The notes under the pieces were generated by a model. The model was not told where the DNA came from. It worked only from the letters and a program-made list of their open reading frames with translations, and searched no databases. A stretch of 13,529 nt of DNA from the UHGV virus genome UHGV-0997613. One strand, written 5' to 3'. Positions 1 to 9,556 of the stretch are shown here, piece after piece. Source of the stretch: a virus. A program made the translations under genes and the position numbers. The first letter of the stretch is position 1. Every line of letters starts with the position of its first letter.

Positions 1-53
1 GTGAGTATCTGCATATGATGTCTGACGCTGGCATTCGCATCAAAGGAGAGTGA
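1..53 (+). CDS. 3' end of an upstream early-left gene (partial; reads ...EYLHMMSDAGIRIKGE*)
   Basis: Frame open from the window edge to TGA at 51-53. Its last 26 nt, including an AAGGAG Shine-Dalgarno and the stop, are repeated exactly at 522-547. Confidence 0.35.
   Translation, partial: EYLHMMSDAGIRIKGE
28..53 (+). repeat. 26-bp direct repeat, copy 1 (CTGGCATTCGCATCAAAGGAGAGTGA)
   Basis: Exact match to 522-547. It encodes a GIRIKGE* C-terminus plus the ribosome-binding site for the next gene. Confidence 0.8.
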
Positions 54-55
54 GA

Positions 56-547
56 GTGCAGATTTCACCGATTACTCTTCGTGTTGCGAAGGCGTTTATA
101 TCCAGACATCACCGACACAATAAACCCCCGGTGGGGCATAAATTCAGCATTGGTCTGAGAAATGATGCCGGAGAATTGATAGGTGTGGCGACAGCCGGTC
201 GACCTGTTGCACGACATTTGGACGATGGATTAACGCTTGAAGTAAATCGCACATGTACCACAGGAGAACGCAACGCTAACAGCGCGCTTTATGGTGCTGT
301 CTGGCGGGCAGCAAAGGCTATGGGTTATCAACGTTGTATTACGTACACCCAGGCAGATGAATCAGGAGCATCTCTCCGCGCAGCTGGTTTTGTTCGTGTG
401 AAAGAGCTTCCTCCAAGAAAAAGCTGGGCGGAATCAAGCGTCGCCCTGCGGAGTAAACGCGATCCGGTCGGAAACGGTGGTGTTCCTCGTGTGCTCTGGG
501 AAATCAGGAGAATGAGTACCACTGGCATTCGCATCAAAGGAGAGTGA
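56..547 (+). CDS. Hypothetical early-left protein, about 163 aa (possibly the conserved XF1763-like prophage family; function unknown)
   Basis: ORF 50..547. GTG at 56 is the likelier start because AAGGAG at 44-48 sits 7 nt upstream, while GTG at 50 overlaps the Shine-Dalgarno. The C-terminus duplicates the preceding gene's end. The family assignment is from memory only. Confidence 0.55.
   Translation: MQISPITLRVAKAFISRHHRHNKPPVGHKFSIGLRNDAGELIGVATAGRPVARHLDDGLTLEVNRTCTTGERNANSALYGAVWRAAKAMGYQRCITYTQADESGASLRAAGFVRVKELPPRKSWAESSVALRSKRDPVGNGGVPRVLWEIRRMSTTGIRIKGE
522..547 (+). repeat. 26-bp direct repeat, copy 2
   Basis: Exact copy of 28-53. It supplies the Shine-Dalgarno for the ATG at 549. 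Confidence 0.8.
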
Positions 548-548
548 T

Positions 549-1421
549 ATGACCACTATTACCAAAGAGCGACTGCTGACAATCAAGCAGTGGCGCGAAA
601 CATACGGACCTGATAGCAACGTTGTACTGCCAGCAGAAGAAGCGGAAGAACTGGCACGAATTGCTCTGGCATCGCTGGAAGCAAAACCAATAGGTGCATT
701 CCACATTGCAGAACAGCAAGTTGACGGCACAAGTGACTACCTCAAGGATGGAGAATGGCCTATTGATAATGGAATTATTGAGGTCTACGCCGCTCCCCCC
801 GTTCCAGTAGTACCGGAAGAAAAACCAATGCCTAATCCTCTTAGCATGTACGCGGTTGATGCTGTTGCCGCTATTGCAGAGGTGAGAGGCTGGAACGCCT
901 GCCGCGCCGCCATGCTTCAGTCCGGAAACTTTCGGGAAAACAAGAATTCGTCAACCAATAATTTTCGGGAAATCGCGGAAACGTCAACCAACTATCCGGT
1001 AATTCCTAGTGAGGTGTTGTCCGCAATCCAGAAGGTTGCCAAGATTCGTGCCGATTTCGATGATTTTGACGGTGACAGGCGAGGTATCGGTGATTGTCTG
1101 GATGAGGCTGAGCAAGAGCTTATCGTTACCATTAACAAATATGCCAGTCAGTTGGCAGCAGAACCTATAGCGCCTAATGACGTTCGAGAGCAGACAGCCA
1201 TTCCGCAAGTTCCGGTAACTCCGGATAGTTGGATAAGCTGTAGTGAGCGAATGCCGGATGACGGGCAGGAAGTTGTTGTTCAAACTCATTCAGGGTGGCG
1301 TTACATCGCATTCTACGAATCCCACTCTGGATTGTTCTATGACAGTCCTGAGGGTGATGTCGAGTATGTTCTCGTAACCCACTGGATGCCGCTACCAGAA
1401 CCGCCGCAGGAGGTGAAGTGA
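549..1421 (+). CDS. DUF551-type phage protein (lambdoid early-left operon)
   Basis: 290-aa ORF with AAGGAG 6 nt upstream. The C-terminal segment (WISCSERMPDDGQEVVV ... HWMPLPEPP) has the character of the DUF551 domain seen at the ends of lambdoid early-left proteins. Stop overlaps the next start (GTGATGG). Confidence 0.7.
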   Translation: MTTITKERLLTIKQWRETYGPDSNVVLPAEEAEELARIALASLEAKPIGAFHIAEQQVDGTSDYLKDGEWPIDNGIIEVYAAPPVPVVPEEKPMPNPLSMYAVDAVAAIAEVRGWNACRAAMLQSGNFRENKNSSTNNFREIAETSTNYPVIPSEVLSAIQKVAKIRADFDDFDGDRRGIGDCLDEAEQELIVTINKYASQLAAEPIAPNDVREQTAIPQVPVTPDSWISCSERMPDDGQEVVVQTHSGWRYIAFYESHSGLFYDSPEGDVEYVLVTHWMPLPEPPQEVK

Positions 1422-1705
1422 TGGACTCCTTCGCGAAATATACGATTATTGACTGGATAGCCTTCCTTCAGGTTTTGCTCATCTGGTTTTATATGGCTTA
1501 CAGGAGTGGACAGTGGATTGTCAGTGTAGCCTGTAGCAAGGGATGGCGTTGGTGGAACCGAAAGAATAAAAAAGCACTGGCATTGGATTCATTTTACGAA
1601 GCATTCAATCTTAACAGCCTTCAGCCTGGTTCTGTCATTGTAGTCACCACTCAAAGCGGCATGACGATACAAATTCACAAGCCAAAGGAGGAAGGTCGTG
1701 GCTAA
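1418..1705 (+). CDS. Small hydrophobic protein, 95 aa, one predicted transmembrane helix
   Basis: ATG overlaps the upstream stop, suggesting translational coupling. Hydrophobic stretch IIDWIAFLQVLLIWFYMAY. No recognisable family. Confidence 0.45.
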   Translation: MMDSFAKYTIIDWIAFLQVLLIWFYMAYRSGQWIVSVACSKGWRWWNRKNKKALALDSFYEAFNLNSLQPGSVIVVTTQSGMTIQIHKPKEEGRG

Positions 1706-2765: not shown

Positions 2766-2974
2766 CACTTCAGGAGTGGAACGCTCGCCAGCGACGCCCA
2801 AGAAGCCTTGAAACAGTTCGTCGATGGGTGCGCGAATGCAGGATATTCCCTCCTCCGGTTAAGGATGGAAGAGAGTATCTGTTCCACGAATCAGCGGTAA
2901 AGGTTGACTTAAATCGACCAGTAACAGGTGGCCTTTTGAAGAGGATCAGAAATGGGAAGAAGGCGAAGTCATGA
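2756..2974 (+). CDS. xis: Excisionase Xis (lambda/HK022 type)
   Basis: 72-aa protein MYLTLQEWNARQRRPRSLETVRRWVRECRIFPPPVKDGREYLFHESAVKVDLNRPVTGGLLKRIRNGKKAKS, matching my recollection of lambda Xis. It overlaps the int start by 23 nt, as in lambda. Confidence 0.9.
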   Translation: MYLTLQEWNARQRRPRSLETVRRWVRECRIFPPPVKDGREYLFHESAVKVDLNRPVTGGLLKRIRNGKKAKS

Positions 2975-4025
2975 GCGCCGGGATTTACCCCCTAACCTTT
3001 ATATAAGAAACAATGGATATTACTGCTACAGGGACCCAAGGACGGGTAAAGAGTTTGGATTAGGCCGAGACAGGAGGATAGCAATCACTGAAGCAATACA
3101 GGCCAATATTGAGTTACTCTCAAACAGCGGACGCAAATCACTGATAGACAGAATTAAAGGCGGTGACGCAATCACTCTTCATGTGTGGCTTGACCGATAT
3201 GAAAGAATCCTCACCGAAAGGGGGATCAGGCCGAAAACTCTACTCGACTACGCCAGCAAAATCAGGGCAATCCGAAGAAAATTGCCGGACAAACCGCTCA
3301 CTGACATATCAACGAAAGATGTGGCAGCAATGCTAAACACCTACGTAGCGGAAGGTAAAGCAGCTTCCGCAAAATTAATCAGGTCAACCCTTGTTGACGT
3401 TTTTCGTGAAGCAATAGCCGAGGGGCATGTGGCAACGAATCCGGTAACAGCAACCCGTACAGCAAAGTCAGAAGTAAGGCGCTCAAGGCTGACAGCTAAT
3501 GAGTATGTCGAGATTTACCATGCAGCCGAACCTCTCCCTATCTGGCTAAGGCTGGCGATGGATTTGGCCGTCGTTACAGGGCAGAGAGTCGGCGATTTGT
3601 GCAGAATGAAATGGTCAGACATAAACGACAACCATCTTCACATTGAACAGAGTAAAACAGGGGCTAAACTCGCCATTCCGCTAACGCTAACGATTGACGC
3701 GCTCAATATCTCATTGGCTGATACACTACAGAAATGCAGGGAGGCCAGCAGCAGTGAAACTATAATCGCATCAAAGCATCACGATCCGCTTTCCCCGAAA
3801 ACAGTATCAAAGTATTTTACAAAGGCGAGAAATGCATCTGGACTCTCATTTGATGGAAACCCGCCAACATTCCATGAACTGCGTAGCCTGTCAGCGAGGC
3901 TATACCGGAACCAGATTGGCGATAAGTTTGCTCAACGTCTTCTCGGGCATAAATCAGATTCAATGGCGGCGCGGTATAGGGACAGCCGTGGACGGGAATG
4001 GGACAAAATTGAAATCGACAAATGA
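2952..4025 (+). CDS. int: Tyrosine integrase, lambda family with HK022-type core specificity
   Basis: 357 aa, collinear with lambda Int (MGRRRSHERRDLPPNLYIRNNGYYCYRDPRTGKEFGLGRDRRIAITEAIQANIEL..., ends REWDKIEIDK). The catalytic region includes HELRSLSARLY and LLGHKSD. Residues at the lambda/HK022 specificity positions read P-K...K and R (PLSPKTVSKYF; ARLYRNQ), which is HK022-like from memory. Confidence 0.95.
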   Translation: MGRRRSHERRDLPPNLYIRNNGYYCYRDPRTGKEFGLGRDRRIAITEAIQANIELLSNSGRKSLIDRIKGGDAITLHVWLDRYERILTERGIRPKTLLDYASKIRAIRRKLPDKPLTDISTKDVAAMLNTYVAEGKAASAKLIRSTLVDVFREAIAEGHVATNPVTATRTAKSEVRRSRLTANEYVEIYHAAEPLPIWLRLAMDLAVVTGQRVGDLCRMKWSDINDNHLHIEQSKTGAKLAIPLTLTIDALNISLADTLQKCREASSSETIIASKHHDPLSPKTVSKYFTKARNASGLSFDGNPPTFHELRSLSARLYRNQIGDKFAQRLLGHKSDSMAARYRDSRGREWDKIEIDK

Positions 4026-4616: not shown

Positions 4617-6767
4617 TTACGGCGCACTGGATAAAATAGACTTCGTCTTCGTAACAATAACATCTACAAAATCACCTGCAGATATAGCTGATGGTACTGT
4701 ATCTGCAAGAGTAATCTTTCCTGAAGAGATGCTTTGCACATCCAATAATTTATTTTCAATCCCATCCGTATATACCAATTTGATATCACTGAATGGAGGG
4801 TAATAAGTAATGGCCCCTTGGTATACATATATTTCACTGCCTGAAATTGATTTCACTACATACCTTCCCCTTACAAGATTAATTTTGAGTTCAGATAAAT
4901 CTGTTTTATAACAGGTAATTCCTGAACCAATGTTAGCAATACTAATATCAGTATCACTATGATAAGTAATTGCTTTACCTTGCTTTAAAGTAAAAGTATT
5001 TTTACTTTTCCTTGGTAAGGATGTGCTATTTTTGTAATATCTACCAGTTAAGCATAGCCATGAAAATGCAGTATTCACTACATTACCACCAGAATACACA
5101 GCTAAACGAATTGCACTAACTGGAACTCCTTCATTATTAATCCTGATCTTAATGGAAGAAATATTAGTAGCAGTTCCATATCTATGGTTAGCAGAATCCC
5201 ATTGCATCGAAGAAGTTATGGCTTCTGTTTGTGAGGTTATGACATTCCCGTCTCCATCTAATGCATACAGGTAAATGCGAAACGATGCCGTATCTGCTGA
5301 GAATGTAAACATATCACCATTTCTTACTGGTATATCTCCCGATTCCCATAAAAGCCCAAAATCCCTCATAAAAGCAAACTTAGAAGAAACCAGGTGACGG
5401 ATATTATATAAACCATCTACATCTGTTTGATATGCTAATACACCAACTTCTCCATTGTTAGCACTGGATATAAATGGGGTGTTAGCATTTAAAGAAAACA
5501 ATGTTACTTCATCGGATATATTTTCCTGAATATGAAATACTGCATTCCCCTTGCCATTATCAGTTACCTCGACATAAGTGTAAGGTGATGGATTGTATGG
5601 CTCATTTGTATACGCAGGAGATGAAAGCCATGTAGCTTCAATTGAGTTATTCCACGTATATTCACCAAAGTTAATTATCAACTGTTGGTTAGTTGGGGAT
5701 GATGGATATCGTTCAAAACGAAACCCGTAGAAGTAATTGTTATCACCTCTTTGAATATCAATTTTACCTGCCCCCTCCATAGTTCCACCATAAAACTTAT
5801 TGTGGTTATGATGATATGGATTATCAGCGAAAATGATATTATTCGTACGATTCAGATAAAAATAGTTTTCATTTATCCATCCTTTCTCAACTCCAAGAAA
5901 ATGAATTGTATCGACCTTTTTCAGGTTAAAGGTTGAGTATGCTATTGAATAATCCGTCGATGCCACCGAAGCATTATAATTTGCATATAACTGTAAGTAG
6001 TCGCAACGCTCAATGTTTATATGCTGCCCTTTTGCCCCGATAATACGAATATCCGGTGTCGTTTCAGATGAAATACCAGAATTTCTGATAATCGTTCCGA
6101 AGTTTTGTCTTGGGTTGTTAGGGTTTGATGCATTCCCGCCAAGCAATACCCCTATTCCTGAGTGGGATATGGTAAAAACAGCATTGGTCATTTCGAGGCT
6201 GACATTACGAAGATTTAATGTCTCCGTAATAATAAAATTACCTTCCGCTCGTAATGTTCTGGATGATTCTCGTGCATATTCTGCAGCCAGGATCAATGCA
6301 GATGTATCATCTGTTATACCATCTCCTTTTGCCCCCCACCCTCTTACATCACAATCGTCCCTCCACCGAGATATCTGCAATTCAGGGTATTTTTTAGCTC
6401 CATCCTGGTCTTCTAATTGCTGCCGTAGTTGATCAGGGTCATACTTCAGCACATTAGGAAAATAGAACTGCTGCACACCATACGCATCGTATACAGCCAT
6501 CGAATGGCCTTGCACAGTTACGAATTTGGCAATCTGTCCATTATATACAGGGTAACCAGCAGCGTTAATGATGATTGGTTGCGATACAGGAACGTGAGAG
6601 CCGTCTTCGTTCTCCACATAAACCTGCACTTGATTCTGTGGGAGCGTGGGATCGGAATCTATCTTACCAATGAATATCTTGCCATTGCTTGCTGCCTGGA
6701 ATTTTCTGGCTAACGTAAATAGTTGACTTGGCATTGAAATTATAACATTTGGCACAATATTTGACAT
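4617..6767 (-). CDS. Tailspike protein: P22-type head-binding N-terminal domain fused to a right-handed beta-helix receptor-binding domain (pectate-lyase-like)
   Basis: 716 aa. The first ~115 residues (SMPSQLFT...[72 protein letters not shown]...NVLKYDPDQ) match the P22 gp9 head-binding domain pattern. The remainder begins [16 protein letters not shown], typical of pectate-lyase-3-like beta-helix domains, and is markedly AT-rich. Confidence 0.9.
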
Positions 6768-6793
6768 AGTGAATCTCTATTTAAGGAATGAAT

Positions 6794-7282
6794 ATGATTA
6801 CTCATAAAGAATTAACCTCTTCACTCAACTACAACCCAGAAACAGGCGTCTTCACTTGGAAGATAGCTTCTGGTAGCTCCAGTATCGGAAAGGTTGCTGG
6901 ATTTAAGACGAACTCACAGGCCGACTACTTATCAATACGGATTAATGGAAAATCGTATCTTTGCCACCGACTTGCTTGGTTTTATATGAAAGGATGCTGG
7001 CCTAAAGGGTTAATTGACCATATTAACGGGGTTAAAAATGACAATAGAATTTCAAACCTAAGAGAAGTAACCAGAGGTCAGAATAAAACCAACAGCGTTT
7101 CATCATCCAATACAGGTATAAAAGGAGTTCACCTTCTTAAAGGGAAAAACACATATAAAGTTATGTTCAAACTAAAAGGTAAGTCTATTTGCCTTGGGTA
7201 TACCGATGATATTGAGCTGGCCGAATTAATGTCTATTGCATTCAGGGAAAAATATCATGGCGAGTTTGCTTGTTTTAGATAA
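6794..7282 (+). CDS. HNH homing endonuclease with a C-terminal AP2-type DNA-binding domain
   Basis: ORF 6788..7282; ATG at 6794 is the likely start, with AAGGAA at 6783-6788. HNH_3-type motif CHRLAWFYMKGCWPKGLIDHINGVKNDNRISNLREVTRGQN and AP2-like GIKGVHLLKGKNTYKVMFKLKGKSICLGYTDDIELAELMSIAFREKYHGEFA. AT-rich, and divergent from the tailspike with only about 26 bp between the start codons. Confidence 0.85.
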   Translation: MITHKELTSSLNYNPETGVFTWKIASGSSSIGKVAGFKTNSQADYLSIRINGKSYLCHRLAWFYMKGCWPKGLIDHINGVKNDNRISNLREVTRGQNKTNSVSSSNTGIKGVHLLKGKNTYKVMFKLKGKSICLGYTDDIELAELMSIAFREKYHGEFACFR

Positions 7283-9100: not shown

Positions 9101-9107
9101 GCGGGTT
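9088..9107. terminator. Bidirectional terminator shared by convergent mnt and the toxin operon
   Basis: AACCCGC-GATTAA-GCGGGTT stem flanked by an A6 tract on one side. This gives TTTTTTCTTT on the minus strand and TTT on the + strand. The mnt stop codon lies in the loop and the toxin gene stop abuts the stem. Confidence 0.6.
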
Positions 9108-9556
9108 TAGTCAAACATAGTGTTTCTAAAGTCTCTCGCATACCCTGCTAACACTCTCATTCTATTATGATTGTTAGCAGACATGTGAGCTACAGGGTGA
9201 AAAAGAGCAATCAATGAATACCTGTTCTCATCAAAAAGATTTTGTGCATAAACGAGAGCGGTATTGGATGTTTTATGCCACTGCAACTTTTGCGGTGTGC
9301 TGATATCTGTGCCATTTTTTATTGGCTCAAATTTATTTTCACCAATTGCTAAATGAAGGTGCATAAGACCTGCATCTTCAATATCAGGAGGCCGATGATA
9401 AGAGGTGTCTCTGCCAAAATAGCTGGGCAACGTTCCCGTAGACTTGTAGATGATAAAATCATCTACAAGTGTTTGTTTTAAATCAGGAAACTCAACAAAA
9501 ACCGGGGAGAAAAAATAGTCAAAACTATCCTGATTATATTCCACGGTTACTTGCAT
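9107..9556 (-). CDS. YafO-family toxin homologue (putative ribosome-dependent mRNA interferase)
   Basis: 149 aa. Segments FIIYKSTGTLPSYFGRD, MHLHLAIGENKFEP and LVYAQNLFDENRYSLIALFHPVAHMSANNHNRMRVLAGYARDFR align with E. coli YafO (FISYKRDGVLPDIFGRD; HIHLANENNPFP; LVYCQGAFDEQAWLLIAILKPEPHKLARDNNQMHKIGKMAEAFR) as I remember it. GAGGT lies 5 nt upstream of the ATG and overlaps the upstream gene's TGA. Confidence 0.65.
   Translation of the reverse strand: MQVTVEYNQDSFDYFFSPVFVEFPDLKQTLVDDFIIYKSTGTLPSYFGRDTSYHRPPDIEDAGLMHLHLAIGENKFEPIKNGTDISTPQKLQWHKTSNTALVYAQNLFDENRYSLIALFHPVAHMSANNHNRMRVLAGYARDFRNTMFD

Follow-up and report, generated by a model that had tools for sequence, protein, structure and literature searches.

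A 26-bp gene junction bracketing a Mom-like candidate gene in a P22-like phage is probably a conserved linker for the exchange of accessory genes

The window analysed here, the whole of a 13,529-nucleotide stretch of the virus genome UHGV-0997613, is derived from a P22-like temperate phage and begins within a group of accessory genes, one of which is bracketed by two direct repeats. The repeated 26-mer, CTGGCATTCGCATCAAAGGAGAGTGA, is present in exactly two copies on the + strand (28–53 and 522–547), and the window contains no third copy within three mismatches. The 26-mer was never matched in 200 dinucleotide-preserving shuffles of the window, and a repeat finder recovered the identical pair (spacing 494). 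Both copies are translated in frame to the same peptide, G-I-R-I-K-G-E-stop, and contain a GGAG (45–48 in copy 1, 539–542 in copy 2) and a TGA stop codon (51–53 and 545–547, respectively), followed on the 3' side by the start codons GTG 56 and ATG 549. A preliminary description of this DNA had reported the exact repeats, the 494-bp unit that they define, and the composition of each copy as GIRIKGE codons, stop codon and Shine-Dalgarno (SD) sequence for the next gene, all of which was borne out by the shuffles, the repeat period and the in-frame translations. To judge from sequence comparison, the 26-mer is a conserved junction between the accessory genes that temperate phages of enterobacteria carry in their exo-xis region (early-left, pL). 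We consider it probable that it serves as a linker at which homologous recombination swaps, inserts and deletes genes, and that the bracketed cassette came about in this way.

The locus reads on the + strand from the 3' end of a lambda-type ea22 gene (Ead/Ea22 family; 1–53, cut by the window edge and assigned by its identity to phage lambda) through the cassette gene (56–547) into an EaA-type gene (549–1421), which codes for 290 aa with a C-terminal DUF551 domain (Pfam, 56.5 bits). Copy 1 of the junction (28–53) belongs to the resident gene and comprises the last seven ea22 codons, containing the SD sequence AAAGGAGAG at 42–50, and the TGA; it terminates the partial upstream open reading frame (ORF) with ...EYLHMMSDAGIRIKGE-stop. 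Copy 2 (522–547) terminates the cassette ORF with ...WEIRRMSTTGIRIKGE-stop, appears to move with the cassette and serves ATG 549, and the EaA-type gene is accordingly predicted to be translated from the SD sequence within it. The design of the junction therefore packs the last seven upstream codons, of which K-G-E (AAA GGA GAG) form the SD sequence, the TGA, one spacer base and the next start codon into a single short stretch. Recombination between the two copies would remove a unit of 494 bp (54–547), leaving the order ea22-junction-eaA.

A gene of 165 aa had been proposed between the repeats, and its bracketing by them stood, but its start became doubtful. The mechanical ORF begins at GTG 50, and because the GGAG at 45–48 lies only 1 nt from this codon and relatives carry an ATG at the equivalent of position 56, the gene most likely comprises 56–547 and codes for 163 aa. 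The protein matched NCBIfam XF1762_fam (NF045478) with 205 bits against a cut-off of 50, the match covering residues 3–136 alone, and PHROG 1384 ('Mom-like DNA modification protein') with an E value of 1.8e-42 over residues 1–128. A match to Pfam Mom (PF25680) scored 23 bits, which is under the gathering cut-off of 27.1, and a precomputed PF25680 match is present in several close homologues. An AlphaFold (AF2) model based on an alignment of 52 homologues reached a predicted local distance difference test (pLDDT) value of 86, compared to 35 for a model from the single sequence, and its last strand is formed by residues 145–151 (RVLWEIR). The top fold match of the model in the PDB was Mom of phage Mu (8bv8; E value 6.8e-8, TM score 0.69), followed by GNAT acetyltransferases, and neither a PDB sequence search nor PADLOC gave a match for the cassette protein. 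Mu Mom and the cassette protein are alike in their GNAT-like fold and in the Mom-like annotation of the PHROG family, but their sequence identity is only 11% and the Pfam Mom score stays sub-threshold. We assign the product to the XF1762 family with a predicted Mom-like GNAT fold, which makes the cassette gene a candidate DNA-modification gene. A literature search on XF1762 found nothing. The body of the cassette is present in 144 complete E. coli genomes at 151 places, 20 of them on plasmids, and is much rarer than the junction itself (see below).

The 3' tail of the cassette gene (516–547, ...STTGIRIKGE-stop) was acquired secondarily. XF1762 genes from IMG/VR at 83–88% identity end with ...VLWEIRR plus one or two residues (MK, GV, R or AV) at a length of 153–154 aa, and the homology with these tail-less genes stops directly after CAGGAGAATGA (505–515). 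A search of 5.8 billion proteins for XF1762 relatives returned 5,662 matches, and in the best 120 cluster representatives the conserved domain stops at LWEI(R/K); a GIRIKGE-type tail was found in five of these 120, all of them close Escherichia relatives. In the AF2 model, residues 152–163 of the tail have low pLDDT values, falling from 63 to 41, with the aligned homologues mostly lacking the tail, which by itself lowers the confidence. Because homologues at 83–88% identity end before the tail, we regard it as a secondary acquisition and not as a shared domain. Junction copy 2 is present at the 3' end of the cassette in all full-length close relatives, irrespective of the downstream DNA, whereas on the left side of XF1762 genes either this junction or related ones such as GCCGCTGGCATCAAGGAGGAGTCTGAGTGATG (AAGIKEESE-stop) are found.

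The same data bear on the idea that the upstream and cassette proteins are paralogues with a real C-terminal domain, whose conserved end would appear as the repeat. Both proteins end with GIRIKGE, and both have M-S at an equal offset upstream of the shared tail. The serine codons differ, however (TCT and AGT), so that the shared M-S does not represent DNA homology. BLASTP of the Ea22-type protein of phage SJ46 against the cassette protein aligned the last 14 residues, 9 of them identical, and nothing else, the XF1762_fam match stops at residue 136, and homologues at 83–88% identity are tail-less. The folds differ as well, being GNAT/Mom-like in the cassette protein and alpha-beta in the Ea22 C-terminal domain (PMC10834534). 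Instead of the longer shared C-terminal domain that the preliminary description had named as refuting its reading, only 9–14 terminal residues are common to the two proteins, and paralogy is hardly credible on this evidence. A further candidate, the reading of MSTT as a relic start of a downstream EaA-type gene, was dropped since the nucleotide match was weak.

Decayed forms of the junction and the cassette were also encountered (loci L346, L390, L360 and L183 of our collection). In some, the stop codon is lost and the ORF continues (GIRIKGDAGEQNDEKP-stop, or GIRIKGEE...), one ea22 gene crosses the junction in a shifted frame, and one XF1762 gene with a 1-nt deletion, which reduces the spacing of the copies to 493, is a pseudogene.

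The upstream gene carries the junction as its native end. Window positions 1–53 (17 codons, the 26-mer included) match the end of ea22 in phage lambda without a single difference, which identifies the left copy as native to a lambda-type ea22; the full-length homologue from SJ46 scored 132 bits against Pfam Ead_Ea22. All Ea22 proteins have been reported to terminate in K/R-G-E, a '+GE' motif whose significance was left unexplained (PMC7093339). Translated in the frame of ea22, the ribosome-binding site that serves the following gene (AAA GGA GAG TGA) yields just this ending, which accounts for the motif. One may still suppose that the tail is a functional C-terminal peptide motif, such as a binding or degradation tag, which is selected at the protein level and was gained by the cassette gene for that purpose. 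Apart from the general occurrence of +GE in Ea22 proteins, diverged junctions that still read AAGI...GE or ...E (AAGIKEESE, AAGIKVEAE and AAGIGVKGE) favour this view. We analysed the substitutions within the junction in a sample restricted to loci that had been retrieved through protein homology (108 distinct contexts with 18 sequence variants). There were 5 synonymous and 16 non-synonymous substitutions, compared to a random expectation of 15:48, and they were spread evenly over codon positions 1, 2 and 3 (6, 8 and 7, respectively), while positions 11–19 (CAAAGGAGA, the SD sequence) were invariant. Because the ratio matches the random expectation and the invariant bases are those of the SD sequence, the constraint lies on this sequence and not on the peptide. 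Natural variants include G>D, R>C, R>G, I>T, I>F and E>D, most XF1762 proteins do without the tail, and the tail is predicted to be unstructured, though the alignment consists mostly of sequences without it, which lowers the confidence by itself. A peptide tag is thus an unlikely explanation.

The native junction of lambda shows a further aspect. In lambda and closely related phages, the DNA on the 3' side of the junction contains no real gene, but at most a 7-codon ORF. The spacer between ea22 and ea8.5 of lambda (L284, 2650–2850, minus strand) corresponds to a module of other phages (L022), apart from an 11-nt indel immediately 3' of the junction; the longer form of the spacer encodes only the 7-codon ORF (MSRNTGL-stop), and the 11-nt deletion removes even that. 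In another lambda-type ea22 gene (L026, near 2980), ...GACATCATTAC is fused directly to GCATCAAAGGAGAGTGA, which resembles a deletion between ATTACGCATC inside the C-terminal domain and ATTCGCATC in the junction. Stop codons lie upstream in the junction frame there, and this ea22 gene probably crosses the junction in another frame.

Comparison with related phages revealed both empty sites and other surroundings of the cassette. The P1-like phage SJ46 carries the same ea22 end, a single junction and an EaA-type gene directly after it, without a cassette, and two further loci (L285 and L286) are arranged likewise, again without a cassette. If the 494-bp unit is deleted in silico from the window, the first 69 nt of the product, which contain the junction ...GGCATTCGCATCAAAGGAGAGTGATATGACC..., are 100% identical to L285 and L286. 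In the P2-like phage PhiR44_2, the cassette is present at 99% identity (window 32–551) with different neighbours on both sides, its left junction being shorter (AACATTGGCATCAAAGGAGAGTGA) and its right junction full-length. The Stx2a phage 981509 carries an unrelated Ea22 allele ending with GCTGGCATTTGCATCAAAGGAGAGTGA, which is followed via the same junction by the EaA-type gene of the window. The breaks of this three-way mosaic fall at the junction copies, with PhiR44_2 matching 32–551, the Stx2a phage 522–1500, and SJ46 matching from position 1. The genomes with one junction copy and no cassette are what the preliminary description had suggested looking for. An exact counterpart of the deletion product was not found, the nearest being a lambda-type ea22 gene with the junction and a different EaA allele. 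None of the phage records or complete E. coli genomes covers at least 80% of window positions 1–1500, and the exact pattern of left junction plus cassette gave no match in IMG/VR or in species-representative genomes.

In P2-like phages (PhiR44_2, L001, 2208–3281), exo-xis-type accessory genes with junctions are flanked by the gpA replication gene on one side and the portal gene on the other; such genes and junctions are also present in P1-like phage-plasmids (SJ46, L002). The P2-type 104-aa protein encoded upstream matches the C-terminal part of Ea22-type PHROGs.

Direct repeats around a single promoterless gene superficially resemble a gene cassette, and the arrangement could accordingly be the footprint of a dedicated mobile element, either a site like the attC of integrons, on which a site-specific recombinase acts, or the target-site duplication of a transposition event. 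When the two copies were folded as single-stranded DNA, neither strand showed structure beyond that of shuffled sequences (z from 0.15 to −0.83), and no inverted repeats were found at the ends of the cassette. Because both features are missing, the junction is unlike an integron or transposon site. The cassette contains neither a recombinase nor a transposase gene, IntI was not found, and the sole integrase nearby is a lambda-type Int. In P2-like phages, the left and right junction copies are unlike (AACATTGGCATC... vs. ACTGGCATTCGCATC...), which would not be expected for a target-site duplication, and because the right copy is constant everywhere and the left copy is that of the resident gene, such a duplication is ruled out. 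Known target-site duplications are far shorter than 26 bp. Taken as a whole, a dedicated mobile element is very improbable here.

To assess how widely the junction is shared, we scanned IMG/VR for its 17-nt core GCATCAAAGGAGAGTGA, which selects the loci by the core sequence itself, and obtained at least 120 occurrences. On both sides of the core, unrelated gene ends are joined to unrelated gene starts, with the start codon 1–3 nt past the stop codon in nearly all classes, and the alignment columns are well conserved only within about −10 to +20 of the core, with background values on either side. Ungapped clustering of the flanks yielded 18 upstream and 27 downstream classes in 68 pairings among 125 listed occurrences; restricted to the core-scan loci, the same classes formed 65 pairings among 120 listed occurrences, compared to 85.1 ± 2.8 expected for free assortment and about 27 for full linkage. 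As this procedure had split at least one downstream class by an 11-nt indel beside the junction, the analysis was repeated with gap-tolerant single linkage, and we report both results. The repetition gave 10 upstream and 22 downstream classes in 45 pairings among the 120 listed occurrences, where free assortment would give 55.3 ± 2.2 and full linkage about 22. Ea22-family genes that were fetched independently of the junction ended in the exact core in 51 of 79 cases, and a single lambda-type ea22 allele, represented by 37 loci that do not differ in their last 33 nt, was continued in 18 different ways. Two junction copies were also found around other cassettes, with units of 217, 514 and 843 nt. 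Besides Ea22-family genes, the junction is located on the XF1762 gene, the P2-type 104-aa gene and the genes of other bracketed cassettes, which are either no members of the Ea22 family or lack its conserved N-terminal domain.

The junction occurs in lambda-, P22-, P1- and P2-like phages. It was detected in 330 of 50,697 phage records and in 2,943 of 5,426 complete E. coli genomes, or about half of them, at 6,103 places, 316 of which are on plasmids. The median is 2 and the maximum 10 copies per genome, so that potential exchange partners often reside in the same cell. Exact matches of a 24-mer were also found in implausible taxa (L287–L324), such as Streptomyces, Streptococcus equinus, Prevotella and Bacillus, mostly on tiny or low-coverage contigs, and in Shewanella and Pseudomonas assemblies on contigs of about 48.4–48.5 kb. 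Likewise, ea22 is present in MW057783.1 and OQ055246.1, the records of a 48,361-bp 'Campylobacter phage CJLB-4' and a 'Xanthomonas phage'. These matches look like phage lambda contamination or chimeric assemblies and not like true hosts, and as this applies to most matches of the genome scan, the scan says little about the taxonomic range.

Alternatively, the mosaic joints could be products of illegitimate recombination among which selection retained those with intact genes, as in the Hendrix model, and the junctions would then be convergent signals for translational coupling. A strong SD sequence combined with stop and start codons indeed recurs at many gene ends of this operon, for example as GGAGGTGAAGTGATG at 1405–1420 of the window, and other junction types do exist. 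Convergence leaves unexplained, however, why 12–14 bases outside the SD sequence (CTGGCATTCGCATC) are identical as well, and the same 24–31-mer recurs in the 330 phage records and 2,943 E. coli genomes given above, with the boundaries of homology coinciding with the junction. We consider convergence improbable.

Further junction families were observed at gene boundaries in this region (L164–L201 around 1460–1500 and L204–L283 around 1455–1500), for example GCCGCTGGCATCAAGGAGGAGTCTGAGTGATG, ...GGCATCAAGGTGGAGGCTGAGTGATG, GCCGCTGGCATTGGCGTGAAGGGGGAGTGAATG and TTAAGGA(G/C)TAACA(C/A)ATG. By its sequence, the junction of the window looks like the GCTGGCATC-AAGGAG type with an additional GCATTC unit, a 6-nt tandem duplication which adds Ile-Arg.

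Several observations weigh against the linker interpretation or limit its range. Assortment is not wholly free, as 45 pairings were found among the listed loci where 55 were expected (adjusted mutual information, AMI, 0.22), and IMG/VR holds near-duplicate prophages in addition to the preselection of the core-scan loci by the core sequence. Only 5 of 68 EaA-type genes that were sampled regardless of the junction carry it upstream, the remaining ones having other recurrent junctions, e.g., TTAAGGA(G/C)TAACA(C/A)ATG, which makes our junction one of several types. Most of the upstream classes are Ea22-family genes, so that part of the sharing may simply reflect the vertical retention of the ea22 tail, with varied DNA behind it, and no exchange at the linker; this is the main caveat. 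Because no real gene follows the junction in lambda, a ribosome-binding role is not needed for its persistence there, and the sequence can also persist as an inherited part of ea22. Finally, recombination at the junction is inferred from sequence comparison, and the phage recombinase genes lie beyond the window.

With these points taken into account, a conserved linker remains the probable explanation, as argued for by the combinatorial flanks, the empty sites and a similarity between the two proteins that is confined to the tail. This agrees with the preliminary description, which had read the locus as a cassette inserted or exchanged at a conserved junction and as a footprint of phage mosaicism. 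Unrelated genes ending in the junction would provide a patch of 17–33 bp of identity within otherwise non-homologous DNA, and recombination inside this patch would swap, insert or delete whole genes with reading frames and translation signals staying intact. The XF1762/Mom-like gene would have gained its tail secondarily and would since carry the right copy with it, which places it here between direct repeats. The exchange probably proceeds via phage single-strand-annealing recombinases of the Red-beta, Erf or RecT types. The minimal efficient pairing segment is 23–27 bp for Red-beta and 31–34 bp for RecA (PMC3945230), and the junction identity of 26 bp observed here, which reaches up to 31 bp between many pairs, therefore fits the pairing length of Red-beta and lies below that of RecA. 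The cassette may have entered either as an excised circle, produced by recombination between its two junction copies and reinserted at another junction by a single crossover, or by two separate exchanges in succession. In the genome analysed here, the two copies could recombine or allow replication slippage, and the resulting loss of 54–547 would restore the joint of ea22 and eaA together with frame and ribosome-binding site, and the repeats would be expected to delete the cassette at a measurable rate. The clean deletion proposed in the preliminary description holds as sequence logic, and the first 69 nt of the product that it would leave exist in nature.

A more far-reaching proposal sees the junction as the attachment sequence of an integrase-free cassette system, in which Red, Erf or RecT proteins would promote annealing over 26 bp, followed by excision of the cassette as a circle and its reinsertion. 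Reinsertion might then take place at any of the 2–10 junction copies in co-resident prophages and phage-plasmids of the P1-, P2-, P22- and lambda-like types, and the half of the junction outside the SD sequence (GGCATTCGCATC) would be kept because its identity extends the patch to the minimal pairing length of the recombinase. We regard this extension as possible but rather doubtful.

Conserved linkers at module boundaries are an old idea of Susskind, Botstein and Campbell (PMC2839356), and for phage HK620 an exchange between lambdoid phages via 'flanking, short and conserved sequences' has been described (Clark et al. 2001, as cited in PMC2327257). The junction resembles these linkers in being short, conserved between unrelated modules, located at gene boundaries and expression-preserving, and in joining different modules in different phages. 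It differs from the HK620 linkers, as far as these are known via the citing paper, in lying inside a coding sequence, doubling as a ribosome-binding site, and reaching P1-, P2- and P22-like phages. In T4-type phages, recombination between repeated PeSL (promoter-early stem-loop) sequences inserts, deletes and replaces genes, and excised mini-circles have been detected (Arbiol et al. 2010, PMC2839356), which makes an excised circle a plausible intermediate by analogy for the present cassette, too. Both systems consist of short repeated regulatory sequences beside non-essential genes, those of PeSL being located in a hyperplastic region, but PeSL is an intergenic sigma-70 promoter with a stem-loop terminator, whereas the junction is an unstructured SD/stop/start signal within the coding sequence of an operon. 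Morons bring along a promoter and a terminator of their own, and illegitimate recombination is their presumed route of entry (PMC2839356). Like the cassette, they are accessory non-essential genes between conserved genes of temperate phages (Hendrix et al. 2000), but the cassette has neither promoter nor terminator of its own and is distinguished by a shared junction and its orientation with the operon.

The cassettes of integrons are flanked by attC sites, whose imperfect inverted repeats form a hairpin, and are handled by the IntI integrase encoded next to them. They share with the cassette described here the organisation as single promoterless genes between repeats, the dependence on an upstream promoter and the combinatorial shuffling, but as neither hairpin nor IntI is present, any exchange would depend on general or phage homologous recombination. 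In our literature search, neither this junction nor its occurrence on XF1762 genes nor an SD origin of the +GE motif was found described, the HK620 linkers being accessible to the search via the citing paper only.

The wider context of the window agrees with the early-left assignment made in the preliminary description. The exo-xis accessory genes follow each other in the order ea22 end, cassette, EaA/DUF551 gene, DUF4752 gene and AntA-like gene, and are succeeded by xis (2756–2974) and a lambda-type int gene coding for an arm-binding domain (2952–4025), which is the only integrase gene nearby. Encoded on the opposite strand are a tailspike, whose head-binding domain is that of P22, and after it the antirepressor genes. 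The tailspike gene is adjoined by a gene for an HNH endonuclease (HNH_3; 6788–7282), and a YafO-toxin-like gene (9107–9556) lies among the genes of the antirepressor region. The EaA/DUF551 gene contains a 33-nt imperfect tandem duplication at 927–991 (AACTTTCGGGAAAACAAGAATTCGTCAACCAA / AATTTTCGGGAAATCGCGGAAACGTCAACCAA), which reads NFRENKNSSTN / NFREIAETSTN in the protein. It ends with ...CAGGAGGTGAAGTGATGG (1405–1421), where the stop codon overlaps the next start codon (GTG 1418 or ATG 1421); this is the same style of coupling by an SD sequence within codons and resembles the GGAGGTGAAATAG end of some XF1762 genes (L200).

The concept of linkers is long established, and the junction is a new example of the Botstein/HK620 type and as such an incremental advance; it would not surprise a specialist, but it is a clean and testable example. 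It turns the old question of whether phage mosaicism relies on conserved linkers or only on illegitimate recombination into a countable case, with one junction of 24–31 nt that roughly every second complete E. coli genome carries and that is attached to dozens of unrelated accessory genes. It also accounts for the +GE motif of Ea22 proteins by SD codons. For the phages themselves, the junction would mark the places where accessory genes, such as the Mom-like candidate described here, can come or go with the operon left undisturbed, and it may serve as a simple experimental system for the gain and loss of cassettes.

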